Part shown: positions 6,034 to 22,976 of the stretch, piece by piece | Position numbering within the stretch: position 1 is the first letter of the stretch | Layout of the letters: each line of letters opens with the position of its first letter | Virus record (IMG/VR): IMGVR_UViG_2778261512_000019 | Coordinates: 1 to 22,976 of that record | Length of the DNA stretch: 22,976 nucleotides | Strand: one strand, 5' to 3' | From: a virus | Lineage: Duplodnaviria; Heunggongvirae; Uroviricota; Caudoviricetes | Program-made: the position numbers and the translations under genes | Notes under the pieces: generated by a model | Database searches by the model: none | What the model was told of the DNA's origin: nothing | The model's input: only the letters and a program-made list of their open reading frames with translations

Positions 6034-6234
6034 ATGATCCTGAAACAAGATCTGAAATGGTCACCGGACGGTATGCGTGTTGAGGTCATTCGGGCCGGTG
6101 AGTATGACGACGGGGCGCTTCCTGCCCGGGTGCAGGAGATTGCACTTCAGGCCGGGTTAGCAGAGCGCGGAACCAGTGCAAAAAGCAGTAAAGCGACAAA
6201 AGAGAAAAAAGCCACGACCAGTAAAGAGGGCTGA
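6034..6234 (+). CDS. Hypothetical small protein with Lys-rich C-terminus
   Basis: 66-aa ORF just downstream of the capsid terminator; weak RBS; C-terminus KSSKATKEKKATTSKEG. Only positional support. Confidence 0.4.
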   Translation: MILKQDLKWSPDGMRVEVIRAGEYDDGALPARVQEIALQAGLAERGTSAKSSKATKEKKATTSKEG

Positions 6235-6236
6235 GT

Positions 6237-6560
6237 ATGCTTCTGACAATGGAAGAGATTAAAGCCCAACTCCGGCTGGATGAGGATTTCGATGCTGATG
6301 ACCGCCATCTGCAACTGCTGGCCTGTGCGGCGCAAAAGCGGACGGAAACGTATCTGAACCGGAAGCTCTATGCTCCGGATGAAACCATTCCGGACAGCGA
6401 TCCGGACGGGCTGCACCTGCCGGATGATATTCGTCTGGGGATGCTGATGCTTATCAGCCATTTTTACGAAAACCGCTCGTCGGTTACGGAAGTGGAGAAA
6501 CTCGACATGCCGCAGAGTTTTGGCTGGCTTGTCGGCCCGTACAGGTACTTTCCGCAATGA
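6237..6560 (+). CDS. Head-tail connector protein (gp6-like); true start may be the internal Met at 6249
   Basis: 107-aa ORF, N-terminus MEEIKAQLRLDEDFDADD... resembles phage gp6-like connector proteins; stop overlaps the next start (ATGA). Confidence 0.7.
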   Translation: MLLTMEEIKAQLRLDEDFDADDRHLQLLACAAQKRTETYLNRKLYAPDETIPDSDPDGLHLPDDIRLGMLMLISHFYENRSSVTEVEKLDMPQSFGWLVGPYRYFPQ

Positions 6561-6967
6561 AAATTCGTCAGGCGCAGACCAGCGCAACCTACATTCTGCC
6601 GGACCCCGGTGAACTGAATAAACGCGTCCTGATCCGCCTGCGGGTGGATATGCCCGCGGATAACTTTGGCGTGGAGCCTCAATACCCGGTTACGTTCCGG
6701 ACATGGGCGAAGGTTATCCAGACCAGTGCCACCACCTGGCAGGAAACCGCGCAGACCGGGGACGCCATCACCCATTACATCACCATTCGTTACCGCCGGG
6801 GGATCACCGCTGATTATGAGGTGGTCTGCGGTGACAGTGTGTACCGGGTGAAACGTCAGCGCGATCTGAACGGGGCGCGGCGCTTTCTGCTGCTGGAGTG
6901 TACGGAGCTGGGCGAATGTAGGCAGAGTCACGGAGGCAACAATGACGACTTCCTTTTTGCACGTTGA
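6557..6967 (+). CDS. Head closure / head-tail adaptor protein (SPP1 gp16-like)
   Basis: 136-aa ORF with FRTWAKV...ITIRYRRGI...YRV...RFLLLEC pattern typical of head-tail joining proteins. Confidence 0.7.
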   Translation: MKIRQAQTSATYILPDPGELNKRVLIRLRVDMPADNFGVEPQYPVTFRTWAKVIQTSATTWQETAQTGDAITHYITIRYRRGITADYEVVCGDSVYRVKRQRDLNGARRFLLLECTELGECRQSHGGNNDDFLFAR

Positions 6968-7448
6968 TTTTCAGCAGCCCGCGGAGATGCGCTTTAACCG
7001 CGCCCGTGTCAGGCGGGCGTTTGTCACGATTGGTCAGCGTCATATGCGTGATGCCCGTCGGCTGGTGATGCGCCGTGCGCGGTCGGCACCGGGTGAAAAC
7101 CCCGGTTATCAGACCGGACGCCTGGCTCGTTCGATTGGTTACATGGTACCCAGAGCCAGTAAACATCGCCCTGGTTTTATGGCACGTATAGCCCCTAACC
7201 AGCGTAATGGAGAGGGAAACCGCCGTATCACCGGTGATTTTTATCCGGCTTTTCTGTTCTATGGCGTGAGGCGAGGGGCAAAGCGTCGTCGCAGCCATCA
7301 TCGTGGTGCATCCGGTGGCAGCGGCTGGCGACTGGCTCCACGTAATAACTTTATGGTGGAAACTCTTGAAAAGAACCGCAGCTGGACACGCTATTTTCTG
7401 GCGCGGGAATTGCGTAAATCACTGAAGCCGGAGCGACGACACAGATGA
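6942..7448 (+). CDS. Arg-rich neck / virion morphogenesis protein (HK97 gp10-like or Mu G-like)
   Basis: 168-aa strongly basic ORF with GGAGG RBS; assignment is by position between head-closure and tail genes. Confidence 0.5.
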   Translation: MTTSFLHVDFQQPAEMRFNRARVRRAFVTIGQRHMRDARRLVMRRARSAPGENPGYQTGRLARSIGYMVPRASKHRPGFMARIAPNQRNGEGNRRITGDFYPAFLFYGVRRGAKRRRSHHRGASGGSGWRLAPRNNFMVETLEKNRSWTRYFLARELRKSLKPERRHR

Positions 7449-8005
7449 AACTGACGCCTGTTATTGCTGCGCTGCGTGCCCGCTGCCCGTATTTTGAAAA
7501 CCGGGTGGCAGGCGCGGCACAGTTCAAAAATCTGCCGGAGGTCGGAAAGCTGAGACTCCCGGCGGCGTATGTGGTACCGGGTGATGACTCTCCGGGAGAA
7601 AACAAAAGCCAGACCGACTACTGGCAGGAGCTGAAAGAGGGCTTCTCCGTGGTTGTCATACTGAGTAACGGGCGTGATGAGCGCGGTCAGTTTGCTTCGT
7701 ATGATGTGGTGGACGATGTCCGGCAGATGCTCTTTAAGGCTCTGCTGGGCTGGAACCCGGAGGCGTGCGGTAACCCGATTACCTATGACGGCGGCACGCT
7801 GCTGGATCTGAATCGTCATGAGCTGATTTATCAGTTCGATTTTTCGGTCATCAGCGAGCTGACTGAAGACGATACCCGCCAGCAGGATGATCTGAACAGT
7901 CTGGATGAACTGCAAACGCTGGCGATTGATGTTGATTATCTCGAGCCCGGTAACGGGCCTGACGGCGATATCGAACATCACACCGAAATAACCCTTCCTT
8001 CCTGA
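7445..8005 (+). CDS. Structural protein resembling Mu gp37 (DUF1834)
   Basis: 186-aa acidic ORF, translationally coupled (ATGA) to the previous gene and lying just upstream of the sheath gene; family assignment is tentative. Confidence 0.5.
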   Translation: MKLTPVIAALRARCPYFENRVAGAAQFKNLPEVGKLRLPAAYVVPGDDSPGENKSQTDYWQELKEGFSVVVILSNGRDERGQFASYDVVDDVRQMLFKALLGWNPEACGNPITYDGGTLLDLNRHELIYQFDFSVISELTEDDTRQQDDLNSLDELQTLAIDVDYLEPGNGPDGDIEHHTEITLPS

Positions 8006-8013
8006 GGATCCTC

Positions 8014-8184
8014 ATGTTTGTCAAACCTGTTAAAGGGCGGTCAGTTCCTGACCCTGCCCGCGGCGACCTTTTGCCCGCCGAAGGGCGAAATGTTGACGAG
8101 AACAACTACTGGCTGCGCCGTGAAGCAGCGGGTGATATCCGGCGCGTGAATAAAAAGGTGAACACCGATGACGATAAGCTTTAA
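8014..8184 (+). CDS. Small conserved protein (DUF2635-like), absent from the supplied ORF track
   Basis: 56-aa ORF (MFVKPVKGRSVPDPARGDLLPAEGRNVDENNYWLRREAAGDIRRVNKKVNTDDDKL) with GAGGA RBS 5 nt upstream; overlaps the sheath start; a similar small protein precedes the sheath gene in Mu-like tail clusters. Confidence 0.5.
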   Translation: MFVKPVKGRSVPDPARGDLLPAEGRNVDENNYWLRREAAGDIRRVNKKVNTDDDKL

Positions 8185-9664
8185 CACCATTCCGTCGAAT
8201 ACGCTGGTTCCGCTGTTTTATGCGGAAATGGATAACCAGGCGGCGAATACTGCACAGGACAGCGGAGCATCGCTGCTGATTGGTCATGCCAATAACGGTG
8301 CAGAGATTGTTGCCAACAGTCTGGTACTGATGTCGTCGGCAGACTATGCACGCCAGATTTGTGGTGCGGGAAGTCAGCTGGCGCGTATGGTCGAGGCTTA
8401 TCGCCAGACCGACCCGTTTGGCGAGCTGTATGTGATTGCCGTTCCTGAATCCACAGGCGCGGCGGCAACGGTTACGCTGACGGTGACCGGGGCGGCAACC
8501 GAAACCGGCACGGTGAATGTGTATGTGGGACGTACCCGCGTGCAGGCACCGGTGACTAACGGCGATAACGTCACGATGATTGCCAGCAGTATCCAGGATG
8601 CCATCAATGCCGTTCCGGCCCTGCCGTTTACGGCTTCATCTTCGGCAGGCGTGGTTACACTGACCGCGCGTCATAAGGGGCTTTGCGGGAATGAAATTCC
8701 TGTCAGCCTCAATTACTACGGCTTTGGTGGGGGCGAAGTGCTGCCAGCGGGCGTACAGATTGCCGTGGCGACGGGTACCGCCGGAACGGGTGCTCCGGTT
8801 CTCACCGGCGCGGTGGCTGCAATGGCGGATGAGCCGTTTGATTATATCGGCCTGCCGTTCAACGACACGGCCTCCGTTAACACGCTGGTGACCGAGATGA
8901 ACGATACCAGCGGTCGCTGGAGCTATGCGCGTCAGCTGTATGGTCATGTGTATACGGCAAAGATCGGCACGCTGTCAGAACTGGTGACCGCAGGTGACCA
9001 GTTTAACCAGCAGCACATTACCCTGGCGGGGTACGAAAAAGACACCCAGACGCCTGCCGACGAGCTGGCGGCAAGCCGTACCGCCCGCGCAGCGGTGTTT
9101 ATCCGCAACGATCCGGCACGTCCCACGCAGACCGGTGAGCTGGTGGGTATGCTGCCTGCGCCGAAGGGGAAACGGTTCACGATGACCGAACAACAGACCC
9201 TGCTGTCTCATGGCGTGGCAACGGCGTATGTCGAAAGCGGGGTACTGCGCATTCAGCGTGATGTCACCACGTACAGGAAAAACGCTTACGGGGTTGCGGA
9301 TAACAGCTACCTCGACAGCGAGACGCTGCATACCAGTGCGTATGTACTGCGCAAACTGAAATCCGTCATTACCAGTAAGTACGGGCGTCACAAGCTTGCC
9401 AGCGACGGTACCCGCTTTGGTCCCGGTCAGGCGATTGTCACCCCGGCGGTGATCAAAGGGGAACTGCTGGCAACCTACCGTCAGCTTGAGCGTGCGGGGA
9501 TCGTGGAAAACTACGAACTGTTTAAGCAGTACCTGGTTGTGGAGCGTGATGCCAGCGATCCGAACCGCCTGAACACGCTGTTCCCGCCTGACTATGTTAA
9601 CCAGTTGCGTGTCTTTGCCGTGGTTAACCAGTTCCGTCTTCAGTATTCAGAGGAGTCTGCATAA
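8168..9664 (+). CDS. Contractile tail sheath protein (Mu L-like)
   Basis: 498-aa ORF, N-terminus MTISFNTIPSNTLVPLFYAEMDN... resembles Mu-type sheath proteins; followed by a 118-aa tube gene with TAATG overlap. Confidence 0.85.
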   Translation: MTISFNTIPSNTLVPLFYAEMDNQAANTAQDSGASLLIGHANNGAEIVANSLVLMSSADYARQICGAGSQLARMVEAYRQTDPFGELYVIAVPESTGAAATVTLTVTGAATETGTVNVYVGRTRVQAPVTNGDNVTMIASSIQDAINAVPALPFTASSSAGVVTLTARHKGLCGNEIPVSLNYYGFGGGEVLPAGVQIAVATGTAGTGAPVLTGAVAAMADEPFDYIGLPFNDTASVNTLVTEMNDTSGRWSYARQLYGHVYTAKIGTLSELVTAGDQFNQQHITLAGYEKDTQTPADELAASRTARAAVFIRNDPARPTQTGELVGMLPAPKGKRFTMTEQQTLLSHGVATAYVESGVLRIQRDVTTYRKNAYGVADNSYLDSETLHTSAYVLRKLKSVITSKYGRHKLASDGTRFGPGQAIVTPAVIKGELLATYRQLERAGIVENYELFKQYLVVERDASDPNRLNTLFPPDYVNQLRVFAVVNQFRLQYSEESA

Positions 9665-10020
9665 TGGCCCGTATCGGGGGAACCTGTTATTTCAAAATTG
9701 ACGGTCAGCAGCTATCGCTGACCGGCGGCATTGAGGTGCCCATGAACAGGACGGTCAATGATGACATCATCGGCCTGGACGGTTCAGTGGACCGCAAGGA
9801 AACTCACCGTGCGCCTTATGTTAAAGGGACCTTCAAGGTGCCGAAGAATTTTCCGGTGAGCAAAATCACCTCGTCTGATGAGATGACCATCACTGCCGAG
9901 CTGGCGAACGGTCAGGTCTATGTACTGTCGTCTGCCTGGCTGCACGGCGAAGCGAACCATAATGCCGAAGAAGGGACGGTTGATCTTGAGTTCCACGGTG
10001 AAGAAGGGGATTACCAGTAA
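9664..10020 (+). CDS. Tail tube protein (Mu M-like)
   Basis: 118-aa ORF immediately after the sheath gene; size and position. Confidence 0.8.
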   Translation: MARIGGTCYFKIDGQQLSLTGGIEVPMNRTVNDDIIGLDGSVDRKETHRAPYVKGTFKVPKNFPVSKITSSDEMTITAELANGQVYVLSSAWLHGEANHNAEEGTVDLEFHGEEGDYQ

Positions 10021-10289
10021 TGAAAGAGCTTGAGTTAAAGAAACCGATTACCGCTCATGGCGAGACACTCTCCGTACTGGAGTTTGATGAGCCCACCGGG
10101 AAAGATGTCCGCGAGCTGGGGTATCCCTACCAGATGAATCAGGATGAGTCCGTCAGACTTCTGGCGCATGTGGTATCGAAATACATTGTGCGGCTGGCGA
10201 AAGTGCCGCAAAACTCTGTCGACCAGATGTCTCCGGCAGACCTGAATGCTGCGGCGTGGCTTGTGGCTGGTTTTTTCCTCCAGGCCTGA
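10020..10289 (+). CDS. Tail assembly chaperone (G-like, upstream frame)
   Basis: 89-aa ORF between the tube and tape-measure genes; ends just after a TTTTTTC slippery site. Confidence 0.7.
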   Translation: MKELELKKPITAHGETLSVLEFDEPTGKDVRELGYPYQMNQDESVRLLAHVVSKYIVRLAKVPQNSVDQMSPADLNAAAWLVAGFFLQA

Positions 10290-10438
10290 CGGCTGAATAC
10301 CTCACTGATCGCTTCTTTGACTGCGCCAGCTACTGGCGCATTAATCCCTTCGAATTGCTGAATATGCCGATCAGTGAAATTCCCTTGCTGGTCAGTCAGG
10401 CAAACAGGATAGAGCAGGAGAAACGCACACATGGCTGA
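10020..10438 (+). CDS. Tail assembly chaperone -1 frameshift fusion product (GT-like); shift at the T TTT TTC heptamer 10271-10277, then frame 2 to the stop at 10438
   Basis: The 10256-10438 ORF is in the -1 frame relative to 10020-10289 and overlaps it exactly at the slippery heptamer; the arrangement precedes the tape measure gene as in lambda G/GT. Confidence 0.55.
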
Positions 10439-12266
10439 ATTTGAGCTTAAGGCGTTGATCACCGGTGTCGACAGACTTTCTCCCGCGCTGTCGAAAATGC
10501 AAAAGAAAATCCGGGGATTTAAACGCCAGGCGGAAGAAGCATCACAGGGTGGGCTGGCGCTTGGTGGCGGACTGGCAGCGGGTCTGACGCTTTCCCTGAA
10601 ATCTTATGCCGATCAGGAAAACGCCGCCACCGGGCTGAAAGTCGCCATGATGGATGCGAACGGCGAGGTCGGAAAGCGCTTTCAGGACATCAATAAACTG
10701 GCTATTGGCCTGGGTAACCAGCTACCCGGTACAACGGCTGATTTCCAGAACATGATGCAGATGCTGGTGCGTCAGGGGATCCCGGCAGAAAACATTCTGG
10801 GTGGTGTGGGTAAAGCGACAGCTTATCTTGCGGTACAACTGAAAAAAACACCGGAAGCGGCTGCTGAGTTTGCTGCAAAGATGCAGGATGCTACCGGAAC
10901 GGCGTCAGAAGACATGATGGGGCTGTTCGACACTATCCAGAAGGCGTTTTATCTGGGCGTTGACGATACCAACATGTTGTCCTTCTTCACTAAAACCAGT
11001 TCTGTTCTGAAGATGGTGAACAAGGACGGTCTTCAGGCTGCACAGAGCCTTGCCCCTATCAGCGTCATGATGGATCAGATGGGGATGAACGGGGAGTCGG
11101 CAGGTAATGCCCTGCGAAAAGTTATCCAGTCCGGATTAAGCGTTAAGAAAATCAGGGACGTCAATAAAGTCATGGCCCGCCAGAAACTCGGAGTGCAGCT
11201 CGATTTTACTGACGGCAAAGGGAGTTTTGGCGGTCTTGATAACATGTTCAGGCAACTGGCAAAGCTGCGAAAACTGACCGACGTTAAGCGAACAGGTGTA
11301 CTTAAGGCAATATTTGGTGATGATGCCGAAACCCTTCAGGTGGTCAATGCTCTGATCGATAAAGGAAAGGATGGTTACGATCAGATCCAGCAGAAGATGA
11401 ATAAACAGGCCAGCCTGAATAAACGTGTTCAGGCACAGCTTGGTACGCTGTCCAACCTGTGGGAGGCAATGACAGGGACCGCAACTAACGGCCTTGCGGC
11501 TATTGGCGGCGCATTTTCTGGTGACGCTAAAAATATCACACAATGGCTGGGGGAGTTGGGGGAGAAATTCACGAAGTTTGCGGATGAAAATCCCCGGGTT
11601 ATTCGCGGCGTCGTCGGGCTTGCTGCCGGTCTTGCGATTCTGAAACTGGGATTGATGGGCGTGGGCAGTGCCATCAGTATTGTCAGCAGGATTATGTCGA
11701 TGACGCCGATTGGCATGATTGCGACGGCGATTGCTCTGGCTGCGGGATTAATTATCACTAACTGGGATGTTGTCGGACCTTATTTCAAGAAGCTCTGGGA
11801 AACCATTGGTCCTTATTTTGAGGCAGGTTGGGAACTTCTGAAGAAGGTTTTTGCCTGGTCGCCGCTGGGGATGGTGATCAATAACTGGGGACCGGTTGTT
11901 AAGTGGTTTCAGGATATGTGGGATAAGCTGAAGCCGATTATTGAATGGTTTACCGACAGTTCCGGTGACACGGTCGATGCCATTAACTCGGCGCAGTGGG
12001 GCGCGGGTGCTTATGATGCTTATGGGACGGGAATACCGGCACGGGGATACACTCCTTATCCGGCGGTGGATCCGGCTCAGGCAAACAACGCCTCCGATGC
12101 CACAGGCTCGAATCCCTTCATGATTAACAAAGCTTCTGCGCCAAAAGTTGATGGTGAGATCAAGGTCTCTTTTGTGAATTCGCCTCCGGGTATGCGGGTT
12201 ATGGAAACGCGATCCAGCGGTTTTGATGTCAGCCATGATGTTGGCTATACGCGCTTTGGCAGGTAA
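10431..12266 (+). CDS. Tail tape measure protein
   Basis: 611-aa ORF with a coiled-coil-like N-terminal half and a Gly/Ala-rich hydrophobic segment (VVGLAAGLAILKLGLMGVGSAISIV); directly follows the chaperone pair. Confidence 0.85.
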   Translation: MAEFELKALITGVDRLSPALSKMQKKIRGFKRQAEEASQGGLALGGGLAAGLTLSLKSYADQENAATGLKVAMMDANGEVGKRFQDINKLAIGLGNQLPGTTADFQNMMQMLVRQGIPAENILGGVGKATAYLAVQLKKTPEAAAEFAAKMQDATGTASEDMMGLFDTIQKAFYLGVDDTNMLSFFTKTSSVLKMVNKDGLQAAQSLAPISVMMDQMGMNGESAGNALRKVIQSGLSVKKIRDVNKVMARQKLGVQLDFTDGKGSFGGLDNMFRQLAKLRKLTDVKRTGVLKAIFGDDAETLQVVNALIDKGKDGYDQIQQKMNKQASLNKRVQAQLGTLSNLWEAMTGTATNGLAAIGGAFSGDAKNITQWLGELGEKFTKFADENPRVIRGVVGLAAGLAILKLGLMGVGSAISIVSRIMSMTPIGMIATAIALAAGLIITNWDVVGPYFKKLWETIGPYFEAGWELLKKVFAWSPLGMVINNWGPVVKWFQDMWDKLKPIIEWFTDSSGDTVDAINSAQWGAGAYDAYGTGIPARGYTPYPAVDPAQANNASDATGSNPFMINKASAPKVDGEIKVSFVNSPPGMRVMETRSSGFDVSHDVGYTRFGR

Positions 12267-19496: not shown

Positions 19497-19557
19497 ATGA
19501 AAATGCAGAAATAACGAGCAAATGGCATCATTCCTGCTTTTGTCAGGGGGAGCTACC

Positions 19558-20112
19558 ATGCTTATTGGCTATGTACGCGTATCAACAAATGACCAGAACA
19601 CAGATCTACAACGTAATGCGCTGAACTGTGCAGGATGCGAGCTGATTTTTGAAGACAAGATAAGCGGCACAAAGTCCGAAAGGCCGGGACTGAAAAAACT
19701 GCTCAGGACATTATCGGCAGGTGACACTCTGGTTGTCTGGAAGCTGGATCGGCTGGGGCGTAGTATGCGGCATCTTGTCGTGTTGGTGGAGGAGTTGCGC
19801 GAACGAGGCATCAACTTTCGTAGTCTGACGGATTCAATTGATACCAGCACACCAATGGGACGCTTTTTCTTTCATGTGATGGGTGCCTTGGCTGAAATGG
19901 AGCGTGAACTGATTGTTGAACGAACAAAAGCTGGACTGGAAGCTGCTCGCGCACAGGGGCGAATTGGTGGACGTCGTCCCAAACTTACACCAGAACAATG
20001 GGCACAGGCCGGACGATTAATTGCATCAGGAGTTCCTCGCCAGAAGGTGGCGATTATCTATGATGTTGGTGTGTCAACTTTGTATAAGAGGTTTCCTGCA
20101 GAGGATAAATAA
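19558..20112 (+). CDS. pinE: Serine DNA invertase Pin (Gin/Hin/Cin family)
   Basis: 184-aa product starting MLIGYVRVSTNDQNTDLQ with the catalytic Ser in YVRVSTNDQ and a C-terminal HTH (VGVSTLYKRF); matches my recollection of e14 Pin; lies beside the inverted repeats. Confidence 0.9.
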   Translation: MLIGYVRVSTNDQNTDLQRNALNCAGCELIFEDKISGTKSERPGLKKLLRTLSAGDTLVVWKLDRLGRSMRHLVVLVEELRERGINFRSLTDSIDTSTPMGRFFFHVMGALAEMERELIVERTKAGLEAARAQGRIGGRRPKLTPEQWAQAGRLIASGVPRQKVAIIYDVGVSTLYKRFPAEDK

Positions 20113-20218
20113 AGTTAAAGACACTTTGTGTACAAAAGAAAATAAAACAACAGCAACTTGTTGCAATTTTATCAATAAAAGTAGTATTGTCGTAAAAAAT
20201 TGATTAAAGATTAATATT

Positions 20219-21052
20219 ATGCATGTTTTTGATAATAATGGAATTGAACTGAAAGCTGAGTGTTCGATAGGTGAAGAGGATGGCGTTTATGGTCTAATCC
20301 TTGAGTCGTGGGGGCCGGGTGACAGAAACAAAGATTACAATATCGCTCTTGATTATATCATTGAACGGTTGGTTGATTCTGGTGTATCCCAAGTCGTAGT
20401 ATATCTGGCGTCATCATTAGTCAGAAAACATATGCATTCTTTGGATGAAAGAAAAATCCATCCTGGTGAATATTTTACTTTGATTGGTAATAGCCCCCGC
20501 GATATACGCTTGAAGATGTGTGGTTATCAGGCTTATTTTAGTCGTACGGGGAGAAAGGAAATTCCTTCCGGCAATAGAACGAAACGAATATTGATAAATG
20601 TTCCAGGTATTTATAGTGACAGTTTTTGGGCGTCTATAATACATGGAGAACTATCAGAGCTTTCACAGCCTACAGATGATGAATCGCTTCTGAATATGAG
20701 GGTTAATAAATTAATTAAGAAAACGTTGAGTCAACCCGAGGGCTCCAGGAAACCAGTTGAGGTAGAAAGACTACAAAAAGTTTATGTCCGAGACCCAATG
20801 GTAAAAGCTTGGATTTTACAGCAAAGTAAAGGTATATGTGAAAACTGTGATAAAAATGCTCCGTTTTATTTAAATGATGGAAGCCCATACTTGGAAGTGC
20901 ATCATGTAATTCCCCTGTCTTCAGGTGGTGCTGATACAACAGATAACTGTGTTGCCCTTTGTCCGAATTGCCATAGAGAATTGCACTATAGTAAAAATGC
21001 AAAAGAACTAATCGAGATGCTTTACGTTAATATAAACCGATTACAGAAATAA
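20219..21052 (+). CDS. mcrA: McrA, modified-cytosine-dependent (type IV) restriction endonuclease with C-terminal HNH domain
   Basis: 277-aa ORF (the K-12 McrA length) with C-terminal CENCD...HHVIPLSSGGADTTDNCVALCPNCHRELH zinc-finger/HNH motif; AT-rich gene between pin and attR, as in e14. Confidence 0.9.
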   Translation: MHVFDNNGIELKAECSIGEEDGVYGLILESWGPGDRNKDYNIALDYIIERLVDSGVSQVVVYLASSLVRKHMHSLDERKIHPGEYFTLIGNSPRDIRLKMCGYQAYFSRTGRKEIPSGNRTKRILINVPGIYSDSFWASIIHGELSELSQPTDDESLLNMRVNKLIKKTLSQPEGSRKPVEVERLQKVYVRDPMVKAWILQQSKGICENCDKNAPFYLNDGSPYLEVHHVIPLSSGGADTTDNCVALCPNCHRELHYSKNAKELIEMLYVNINRLQK

Positions 21053-21285: not shown

Positions 21286-21450
21286 ATGTTACGCCATATG
21301 GGCTGGACTGAAGCCGCAGACCTGATTGTTAAAGGTATGGAAGGCGCAATCAATGCGAAGACCGTAACCTATGACTTCGAGCGTCTGATGGAAGGCGCTA
21401 AACTGCTGAAATGTTCAGAATTTGGTGATGCGATCATCAAGAACATGTAA
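21286..21450 (+). pseudogene. icdC: icd 3' fragment (last 54 codons of isocitrate dehydrogenase) marking the prophage attR junction
   Basis: Frame translates to [54 protein letters not shown], the Icd C-terminus; similarity stops at an in-frame TAA at 21280-21282, beyond which the sequence is phage-side. Confidence 0.85.
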
Positions 21451-21473
21451 TCACTACATGTGTTTAATATTGC

Positions 21474-21505
21474 AACGGGCGTATAACACGCCCGTTGTTT
21501 TATTT
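21474..21505 (+). terminator. icd rho-independent terminator
   Basis: AACGGGCGT-ATAAC-ACGCCCGTT perfect 9-bp stem followed by GTTTTATTT, 24 nt after the icd stop codon. Confidence 0.7.
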
Positions 21506-21552
21506 ATGTAGGTATTATTAATAGCATATCGAGCATATTTATATAAAACCCT

Positions 21553-21876
21553 TTACTTGAGCCCATATGGGCATATTTTTATAATGCAACTATTATGCAA
21601 ACATTTATTTGTTATTTTTCTTTCTCCTGGAGGACACTCTTGACTGCTTTTGAGTAGACTCCATAAATCCTTGTTGAATGGTGCGATGTTATAAATAGTA
21701 ATAGGATATTCTTTATCTTTAAGGATAATTCCAGATTTAACCGGTGTAAATATACTGCCAGGAGGGAGAAATATAGTAGATTGATACCAGATGATCATTT
21801 TCATATTACCCCATATGGCTGAAAAAGATATGCCGCATGAAGGTTGAATTATCGTGTCAATTACTATCCACTTCAT
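21553..21876 (-). CDS. iraM: Anti-adaptor protein IraM (RssB inhibitor that stabilises RpoS)
   Basis: 107-aa minus-strand ORF ([31 protein letters not shown]...) matching my recollection of E. coli IraM in length, sequence and position next to icdC; AT-rich. Confidence 0.8.
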
Positions 21877-22333
21877 TTGTTATGTCTTATCCCACGGTAT
21901 TTAATATAGTTCATTTGGATGTTCATTTCTTTATTTTGCATATGAGTATATTACCCCTTCAAAAAATAAATTAATTAAAACGATTGCTTATATAAAACAA
22001 AATTTAAAGCAAGGAATCTCAATGGATGTTAAACAAAATGAGATTTAGTGAAAACAATAAATTATTCACTTCGTTTTAGATTTGTTTAGCTATAATGTTA
22101 TACATTCAAATGACTGAACATCCTGTAATTAAAACATAGCCTTTATGCTACTTTGTGCCAATTTGCTAAACATTATGGTTGCCTTTTTATATAACGATAA
22201 TAATGAATATAAGCATGACATGAGAATAAGGTTTCAATTTTTGAGTTATATAGGAAAGGTTTAACCTGTTCCTGGCTAAAATACATATAACTGGATGATG
22301 ACTAAACCAAAACACATGTGCGTTAAGTATTGA

Positions 22334-22364
22334 AACGGGCGTATGGCACACCCGTTGTTTTTAT
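22334..22364 (+). repeat. Second, degenerate copy of the icd terminator hairpin and its flank
   Basis: AACGGGCGTATGGCACACCCGTT + GTTTTT; the surrounding ~50 bp (22314-22364) align at roughly 80% identity with 21456-21505. Confidence 0.5.
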
Positions 22365-22571
22365 AAATATATTAACCGTTATAAAATAACGTATAGAAAG
22401 TCAAGTGATCACATTTCAAATATCAATTTGATAGTATTGGCATGGTGATTATTTATGGGTAGCAATAAAAGGACAGTATTTATCATCCATAGGGATAGTC
22501 TCTGTACTTTTATTCCCATTATGCTAATGCCTTACTGAATTATGAAGCATTTCTTAAGCATCCAACTTTAG

Positions 22572-22976
22572 CTAGATTAATGGTTTATTATTTTCTACAT
22601 CTTCAATATATAAAAGCGTATTATCAATGGCGTAGTAACTGCGTTTGTTATGATTAACATCAGTAACCCACCGGAAAACGCCCGCGCCTGCTAGTGTTGA
22701 ACAGTATTCCCGAAATGTAGATTTTCCGCAAATATGAAGCAATGCGGCCTCTTTTATTTTAGCAGGGTTCTTGGTCGTACTAACTTTTAACAGGTTCCTG
22801 GTTCCTCTTAATAACAAAACCGTGTCATCGTGAGTAATAATTCTGATGTTATCCGTAGCCAGATAATAAATGTAATGTGCAATACGGTGATGTTTTAATT
22901 CTGAATAAAACCAGGAGAAGTTTTGCTCTTTTCTCACTTGCTCAAACATCTTTTGAAAAACAACGACCTGATCCAT
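22572..22976 (-). CDS. ycgX: YcgX-like protein (DUF1398); start codon at the window edge
   Basis: 134-aa minus-strand ORF (MDQVVVFQKMFEQVRKEQNFSWFYSELKHH...) matching my recollection of E. coli YcgX, the gene next to iraM; its ATG is the last three bases of the window, so the true start cannot be confirmed. Confidence 0.75.
   Translation of the reverse strand: MDQVVVFQKMFEQVRKEQNFSWFYSELKHHRIAHYIYYLATDNIRIITHDDTVLLLRGTRNLLKVSTTKNPAKIKEAALLHICGKSTFREYCSTLAGAGVFRWVTDVNHNKRSYYAIDNTLLYIEDVENNKPLI

Follow-up and report, generated by a model that had tools for sequence, protein, structure and literature searches.

In Escherichia coli K-12, three classical anti-adaptors stabilise RpoS. IraM is one of them, and it links PhoPQ signalling to the general stress response. 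Its homologue IraL, from the uropathogenic strain CFT073, is a published anti-adaptor, which is described as horizontally acquired (PMC4045071). The same paper states that iraM is located on the e14 prophage. For e14 itself, the part of Hill et al. (1989) that is relayed in PMC6379469 and PMC13626634 describes a prophage that carries its own icd 3' end and whose integration leaves a direct repeat. A further paper, on small RNAs of Shigella (PMC4782007), has ycgW and icd only in a prediction table and is not informative here.

Our analysis concerns a stretch of 22,976 nucleotides, which we call the window. In its right part, an e14-like prophage right arm is followed by icdC, a strong hairpin, iraM, an AT-rich spacer, a second hairpin, ymgL and ycgX, in this order (Table 1). 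The gene names iraM, ymgK, ymgL and ycgX are those of the RefSeq annotation of a locus that is 99.9% identical. The icdC stretch matches the icd 3' ends in other genomes with 94-96% identity, and RefSeq labels it a partial isocitrate dehydrogenase where a prophage is present.

The prophage in the window (1-21052) is much larger than the 15-kb defective e14 of K-12. Open reading frames of terminase, portal, head and tail size occupy at least 19 kb ahead of pin and mcrA. It seems to be an e14-family phage that is complete or nearly so, with its left end beyond the window.

Table 1. Features in the right part of the window, with coordinates, strand and the basis of each assignment
Feature	Position	Strand	Basis or remark
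Pin-type invertase	19522-20112	+	ORF; Pfam Resolvase+HTH_7; resident e14-like prophage, outside the iraM insert
McrA HNH endonuclease	20219-21052	+	ORF; Pfam HNH; resident e14-like prophage, outside the iraM insert
Right end of resident e14-like prophage	19522..21052	+	context, outside the iraM insert
icdC, displaced original icd 3' end, 54 codons	21286-21450	+	ORF; attR side of resident prophage
Copy 1 (H1), working icd terminator	21456..21503	+	stem-loop 21472-21498, then T-run
Left junction of insert and iraM 3' flank	21504..21552	unstranded	unique to iraM-bearing genomes
iraM, 107 aa, RssB anti-adaptor	21553-21876	-	ORF; RefSeq annotation
iraM upstream region, right-hand part of insert, 22-30% GC	21877..22313	-	includes ymgK
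ymgK, annotated micro-ORF, 14 codons	22129-22173	-	position from RefSeq annotation of 99.9% identical locus
Copy 2 (H2), degenerate second icd terminator region	22314..22361	+	alignment with copy 1
Chromosomal right flank	22362..22976	-	common to iraM-bearing and iraM-less genomes
ymgL	22409-22519	-	RefSeq annotation of 99.9% identical locus
ycgX, DUF1398	22572-22976	-	RefSeq annotation of 99.9% identical locus; Pfam

The iraM gene is not a part of e14. It lies beyond the attR of the resident prophage, which consists of icdC and copy 1. In strain BS90R-A, an intact icd is followed directly by iraM, and there is no prophage at this place. Hence, the published statement on its e14 location is inaccurate.

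A preliminary description of the window had claimed that about 50 bp at the icd terminator recur in direct orientation at 22314. The repeat is real. A repeat search finds a direct repeat of 43 nt (21459-21501 and 22319-22361; 84% identity, spacing 860 nt), which is the sole long, high-identity repeat pair in that part of the window. In a gapped local alignment of 21456-21501 with 22314-22361, 41 of the 48 columns are identical, with five mismatches and two gap columns. The first estimate of the identity, roughly 80%, was slightly below the actual 85%. The alignment score is 57. When the query was shuffled 100 times and searched against the rest of the window, scores averaged 22.7 (sd 2.35, maximum 34; z about 14 for the repeat), so the similarity does not drop to background on proper alignment.

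The similarity of the two copies reaches 17 nt upstream of the stem. In the window, the alignment ends at ACATGTG, 5 nt past the icd stop codon. Whether icd coding similarity precedes copy 2 had been proposed as a check; stringent and relaxed local alignments find none in the window.

Between the copies lie 812 bp (about 0.81 kb) with a GC content of 22-35% (about 30%). The AT-richness agrees with the preliminary description, which also named iraM as the only gene. It is the only long open reading frame, but RefSeq annotates ymgK as well. There is no plus-strand open reading frame upstream of copy 2, and so the second hairpin indeed has no plus-strand gene to terminate.

The repeat is not a member of a dispersed, REP-like family. 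A scan with the hairpin pattern, in one genome per species, yields 12 hairpin stretches, all of which adjoin icd or icd remnants. The pattern occurs beside icd in Escherichia, Shigella and Citrobacter only, and in two contigs that are labelled otherwise (uncultured Sutterella sp. and a Veillonella parvula MAG), in which the icd end resembles that of E. coli. The median E. coli genome contains the hairpin stretch in two places. Transposon or MITE ends are equally missing at the insert termini, since the only inverted matches found are short and AT-rich and lie elsewhere. The duplication at the insert is 46-48 bp long and not identical, unlike the target-site duplication of a transposon.

To what extent iraM and copy 2 occur together can be read from 5,426 complete E. 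coli genomes. The query of 1,691 nt (21286-22976) finds at least a partial match in all of them, and a match over at least 80% of its length in 3,844. In one class of partial matches, 825 nt of the record correspond to 1,685 nt of the query, which leaves 860 bp missing, exactly the spacing of the repeat. The genomes A22 and UPEC_U013 have a single hairpin there. Its left flank is the end of icd, and its right flank is the sequence that otherwise follows copy 2. Across iraM-bearing and iraM-less genomes this right flank is 96.5-100% identical over 600 nt. The empty junction (201-nt query, at least 80% of its length) is present in 1,037 of the 5,426 genomes, CFT073 included.

With iraM itself as the query, the best match is at least 90% identical in 3,926 records and 60-80% identical, the phage-type range, in 851; 661 genomes have no match. 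The gene is cleanly absent from about a fifth of the sequenced E. coli, among them CFT073, other urinary isolates and ST131-type isolates (phylogroups were not assigned). The empty-junction and iraM queries together show that iraM tracks copy 2, and that the unit of presence and absence is exactly the interval between the repeats. The preliminary description had proposed this comparison as a check, and its reading passes it: genomes without iraM show the precise gap of about 860 bp and one hairpin, and the second copy is not seen with identical flanks in any of them.

The pattern of presence and absence also bears on the idea of a local duplication. Here, the terminator region would have been copied in place by slippage or unequal crossing-over, and iraM would have been inserted later or would already have been there. 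The copies are direct, close and similar, as such an event would leave them, and the sequences after both copies weakly resemble each other and e14-type arms. Yet two hairpin copies without the insert exist in no genome examined; the sole alternative state has one copy. Furthermore, the DNA between the copies is compositionally foreign, its gene comes from a mobile-element family, and a duplication needs two events where one suffices. We therefore regard a local duplication as very unlikely.

In several genomes IS1 or IS200C has inserted within the interval from icd through iraM to ycgX. Thus this AT-rich stretch is also a target of insertion sequences.

In a tree of the 600 nt downstream, empty and iraM-bearing haplotypes form reciprocally monophyletic sister clades, with a long form of the insert (described below) outside both. 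We lean slightly towards the empty state being a later deletion rather than ancestral. It would be a later deletion if the long and the short form share one acquisition. A crossover within about 33 nt that were then identical would give the hairpin observed at the empty site, which is copy-1-like throughout. Alternatively, separate integrations of related elements would allow the empty state to be the ancestral one.

The two hairpins differ in their state of preservation. As RNA, copy 1 folds with -19.3 kcal/mol (z -5.1; -18.4 kcal/mol on the minus strand), and a consensus scan finds it terminator-like. None of the E. coli, E. albertii and Citrobacter loci examined shows damage to the stem or T-run of copy 1; these loci were partly fetched by the hairpin pattern, which favours an intact copy 1, and one locus retrieved through copy 2 (L054) likewise has an intact copy 1 stem. 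Copy 1 is the working icd terminator and would be under selection as such. It probably also ends iraM transcripts, which arrive from the opposite strand.

Copy 2 folds with only -9.9 kcal/mol (z -1.5), and the consensus scan does not call it. All copy-2 alleles differ from the icd-adjacent hairpin by a CG insertion, by TTAAGT for TTAAAT and by a GG loop for AA. Four further stem or T-run mutations are specific to lineages. The window's allele has a G to A change in the 3' arm of the stem. Another lineage has two stem changes plus a loop change, another a G within the T-run, and another a G to A change in the 5' arm. A weak fold, a missed scan and disruptive mutations that are specific to lineages are not what a functional Rho-independent terminator displays. 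Because the fold is weak and different lineages carry different stem and T-run mutations, copy 2 looks, as far as its sequence goes, like a decaying relic without a job. An intact copy 1 and a degraded copy 2 are the contrast expected when one copy is selected and the other is a relic.

Could copy 2 nevertheless be functional and kept by selection? It might insulate the iraM promoter from ycgX-ymgL or terminate transcription between them, or it might end an unannotated small RNA on the plus strand, and its likeness to the icd terminator would then be secondary. It does sit between two minus-strand transcription units. The window's allele retains a fold of -13.4 kcal/mol (z -3.0) on the minus strand, because its stem change makes a G-U pair there. 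However, the minus strand has no U-run, and both the terminator scan and the Rfam threshold, which no family reaches for copy 2, are missed. An A-G or C-A stem mismatch or a G inside the T-run disrupts the structure lineage by lineage, and a similarity that extends 17 nt upstream of the stem exceeds what a terminator needs. We consider a selected function very unlikely.

In the Rfam search, the icd terminator region (21455-21525) matches the tpke11 small RNA family weakly, with 26.4 bits against a gathering score of 43 (E 0.006). This is most likely a mere resemblance between hairpins. Promoter-like sites in the region are not above those in shuffled sequences.

The left boundary of the insert is shared with known phages. 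Directly after ...CCCGTTGTTTT, the loci split into four sequence classes. The hairpin is followed by the iraM flank in the first class and by the empty-site flank leading to ymgL-ycgX in the second. In the third it is followed by a lambdoid prophage with int and xis, as in O157:H7 EDL933 (E. albertii has an integrase fragment), and in the fourth by the left arm of the e14 family, TTGTTAGCATGCTAACGGTTATCAAAATTTTATC. At the left junction of the insert, GTTGTTTT is the last sequence that the classes have in common. In e14-type and lambdoid icd prophages, homology to the chromosome ends exactly at the right edge of the repeat. Because the classes diverge at one nucleotide, the iraM insert starts exactly where known icd-targeting phages start. 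In E. albertii and Escherichia sp. MOD1-EC7003 a prophage directly follows the hairpin, its far end lying outside the DNA that was fetched.

The lambdoid prophage after the icd hairpin of EDL933 (locus 6165-12218) holds int, xis, replication P, ren, emrE and ybcK. The stretch from iraM to ycgX (21504-22976) has no match anywhere in the EDL933 genome. In O157:H7 strains, the only iraM-like gene is a prophage copy with 71% identity.

The sequence to the right of copy 2 (22362-22400) and of the empty-site hairpin, TTTTTATAAATATGTTAACCGTTATAAAATAACGTATC, resembles the left arm of the e14 family, TTTTATGTAAGTTTGCTAACGGTTATCAAAATTTTATC. The alignments are 74-107 nt long, 75-78% identical, and run past the hairpin. 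There are two ways to read this: the e14-type attP took up a little host DNA beyond the terminator, or the seemingly native flank with ymgL-ycgX is in turn left over from an earlier e14-type element.

Relatives of IraM are found on mobile elements. Homologues with 57-74% identity occur in lambdoid and Stx prophages and in a plasmid- or island-like element. In the prophages, their place is between the genes for the Q antiterminator and the holin, on the opposite strand, and some adjoin Shiga-toxin genes; deposited Stx2 phage genomes contain them too. The homologue in the plasmid- or island-like context is accompanied by PerC, IS21 and a SPATE protease. Between the chromosomal insert and the phage-borne iraM homologues, DNA similarity ends at the coding sequence and there is none beyond it. 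A transferable unit shared with phage-borne iraM was therefore rejected: the flanks are without homology and no donor element was identified.

In the precomputed annotation of a protein database, IraM and every one of its homologues belong to Pfam PF11183 (PmrD). When IraM was itself run with hmmscan against Pfam-A, no family was found at E values up to 1.

A divergent haplotype, first met in a contig from a metagenome run, contains a long form of the insert (about 6.5 kb), which is present in 19 complete E. coli genomes. In strain WL297, icd and the hairpin are followed by about 100 nt of e14-type left arm, a 455-aa open reading frame, an IS5 fragment and trkG. Then come iraM, a gene of the ariR/YmgB family, the iraM upstream region, 215 extra nt, the hairpin and ycgX. 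The long-form IraM protein is 73% identical to that of the window, and the 455-aa reading frame has no significant Pfam match.

The 215 extra nt end in GCTATCAAGAATATGT-TAA. Thus the last icd codons, ATCAAGAATATGT, and then TAA directly precede copy 2 of the long form. This exact match to the last icd codons is 13 nt long and in the register of the hairpin, and it extends the repeat to about 66 nt (score 60). It shows that the distal hairpin has its origin in an icd 3' end, the convincing icd remnant being only about 13-25 nt long. By eye, a longer icdC remnant ('TGTTCAG...TTTGGTG') had seemed to be present. It was rejected, as the score of 247 for the 300 nt that precede the icd tail is no better than that of shuffles (249±17).

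The short form could have been made from such a long form by a deletion from T-run to T-run, as its left flank (21504..21552) is homologous to the DNA just past the T-run of the trkG terminator in the long form. However, the parts that both forms share are only 72-79% identical, and judged by this divergence the two forms might be independent acquisitions.

Two metagenome-run contigs (L091 and L092) hold a third haplotype, an ariR-like-iraM module that is about 80% identical to both other forms. Past the 3' end of iraM the module adjoins the start of an IS3-type transposase, and at its opposite end the flanking DNA is unrelated. The iraM upstream region of the window (21877..22313) is 72-77% identical to the long-form and third (L091) haplotypes. 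Since the third haplotype also holds the pair, the original module was probably an ariR-like gene plus iraM. The long form could also be a composite, in which a later e14-type remnant was fused to an older iraM segment. In that case, iraM and the e14 arm could stem from different elements.

An insertion that did not involve an integrase would account for some of these observations. Foreign DNA, circular or linear, with a related terminator-like sequence (for example, from the icd region of another enterobacterium or a phage attP region) would have recombined at the icd terminator, by homologous or homology-facilitated illegitimate recombination, and would have duplicated about 48 bp of homology. 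Such a route fits with the lack of an integrase remnant. It fits with a short-form repeat of 46-48 bp that begins past the icd stop and not at the e14 crossover 165 nt upstream. The copy-2 changes common to all iraM-bearing lineages are also expected if copy 2 had already diverged on arrival. It leaves unexplained why the left junction is the boundary of e14-type and lambdoid icd prophages, and why the long form has an e14-type arm and icd codons before copy 2. We consider this route rather unlikely.

In our view, copy 2 is probably a vestigial icd terminator that marks the attR-type end of an integrative element which long ago entered the icd attachment hot spot. The preliminary description had offered two explanations, that iraM was the cargo of an older, decayed element at the icd attachment region or that the region was duplicated locally. 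The mobile carriers of IraM, the boundary shared with prophages, and the e14 arm and icd codons of the long form favour the older element. The locus shows what attL and attR scars leave behind: direct repeats, an empty site with the same outer flanks, a known target in icd, and foreign composition with mobile cargo. The foreign composition of the iraM segment (22-35% GC) counts for an older element as well.

The older element may have arrived and decayed as follows. An icd-targeting element would bring an icd 3' end and a terminator of its own, so that upon integration there would be two terminators, one beside icd and one beyond the element. Deletions would then whittle the element down, until in most E. 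coli about 0.81 kb of AT-rich cargo was left: iraM, its upstream control region and ymgK. Copy 1 would be kept by selection as the icd terminator, probably also for convergent iraM, while copy 2 would decay. In the strain of the window, a newer e14-like prophage would have re-entered icd, and icdC, copy 1 and iraM would have been pushed to its right end. Two steps in this sequence of events are inferred: the action of an integrase in the original insertion, and the origin of the short form from a longer one by deletion.

Two observations sit less easily with an older element of the e14 type. No integrase or element-maintenance gene, or fragment of one, is found in the 812 bp of the short form, and none is annotated in the 6.5 kb of the long form, which could reflect deletion. 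Integration of the e14 type predicts about 165 nt of icd coding sequence before copy 2, and the window has none.

A wider reading, which we regard as doubtful, extends the older element to a series. The AT-rich region after icd, with iraM, ymgL-ycgX and perhaps bluR/bluF and ycgZ-ymgA-ariR, would be a stack of remnants of successive icd elements. Every such element could have contributed one or two regulatory cargo genes and a scar in the form of a terminator. Hints come from the e14-like flank that follows copy 2 and the empty site, from the DUF1398 gene ycgX, from the ariR paralogue in the iraM module, and from the distribution of bluF-bluR. The DUF1398 family has paralogues in lambdoid prophages. 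BluF homologues are 93-99% identical within E. coli and then 73-75% identical in Citrobacter; among the matches listed, none lies between 75% and 93% and none is a close BluF from other Escherichia species. The link of the bluF-bluR/ycgZ-ymgA-ariR cluster to icd seems specific to E. coli. If the stack were true, serial phage integration at one site would have assembled a part of the network that controls RpoS, biofilm and the acid-stress response.

Citrobacter (C. braakii and relatives) has bluF-bluR and ycgZ/ymgA/ariR-like genes as well. There, they are not beside icd, and ycgX is not alongside.

With the older element as the supported explanation, an insertion at the phage hot spot that e14 uses too has been almost erased, and iraM is the last of its cargo to survive. 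This proposes a concrete origin for iraM, and it provides an example of a phage cargo gene that became a fixed host regulator. It also defines a precise presence/absence allele, 860 bp delimited by two 48-bp repeats, where strains without iraM have one hairpin. The insert reveals no new mechanism and is an ordinary kind of event. It is well known that the displaced end of a target gene can lie at the distal side of an element that has decayed. In the literature searched, there appears to be no description of this for iraM, of the exact 860-bp allele or of the long form.

The nearest known systems differ from the iraM locus in specific ways. Prophage e14 and the lambdoid prophages of the phage 21 type in icd use the same target region, and the iraM insert begins at the same nucleotide. 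Elements of the e14 type bring their own icd 3' end and terminator, which in the window would give a direct repeat of 216 nt (21286-21501) ending at the T-run, whereas the iraM repeat has 46-48 nt (about 66 in the long form). Unlike that of e14, it starts after the icd stop or, in the long form, about 15 nt before it. The iraM segment also has no integrase or phage genes, and iraM is present in an e14-free strain with an intact icd.

Phage morons and the prophage-borne IraL (PMC4045071) are similar in that IraM is homologous and that its homologues sit between Q and the lysis genes on the opposite strand, the classic position of independently expressed cargo genes. Chromosomal iraM has no recognisable prophage around it, in contrast, and its DNA similarity to them stops at the ends of the coding sequence. 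The closest parallel in form is the 47-bp argU repeat of the grounded prophage DLP12 (PMC6379469). There, too, a short repeat of the target's 3' end lies distal while the proximal copy is functional. Compared to DLP12, the iraM element has decayed much further, to one gene in about 0.8 kb, and its repeat is an mRNA terminator instead of the end of a tRNA gene.
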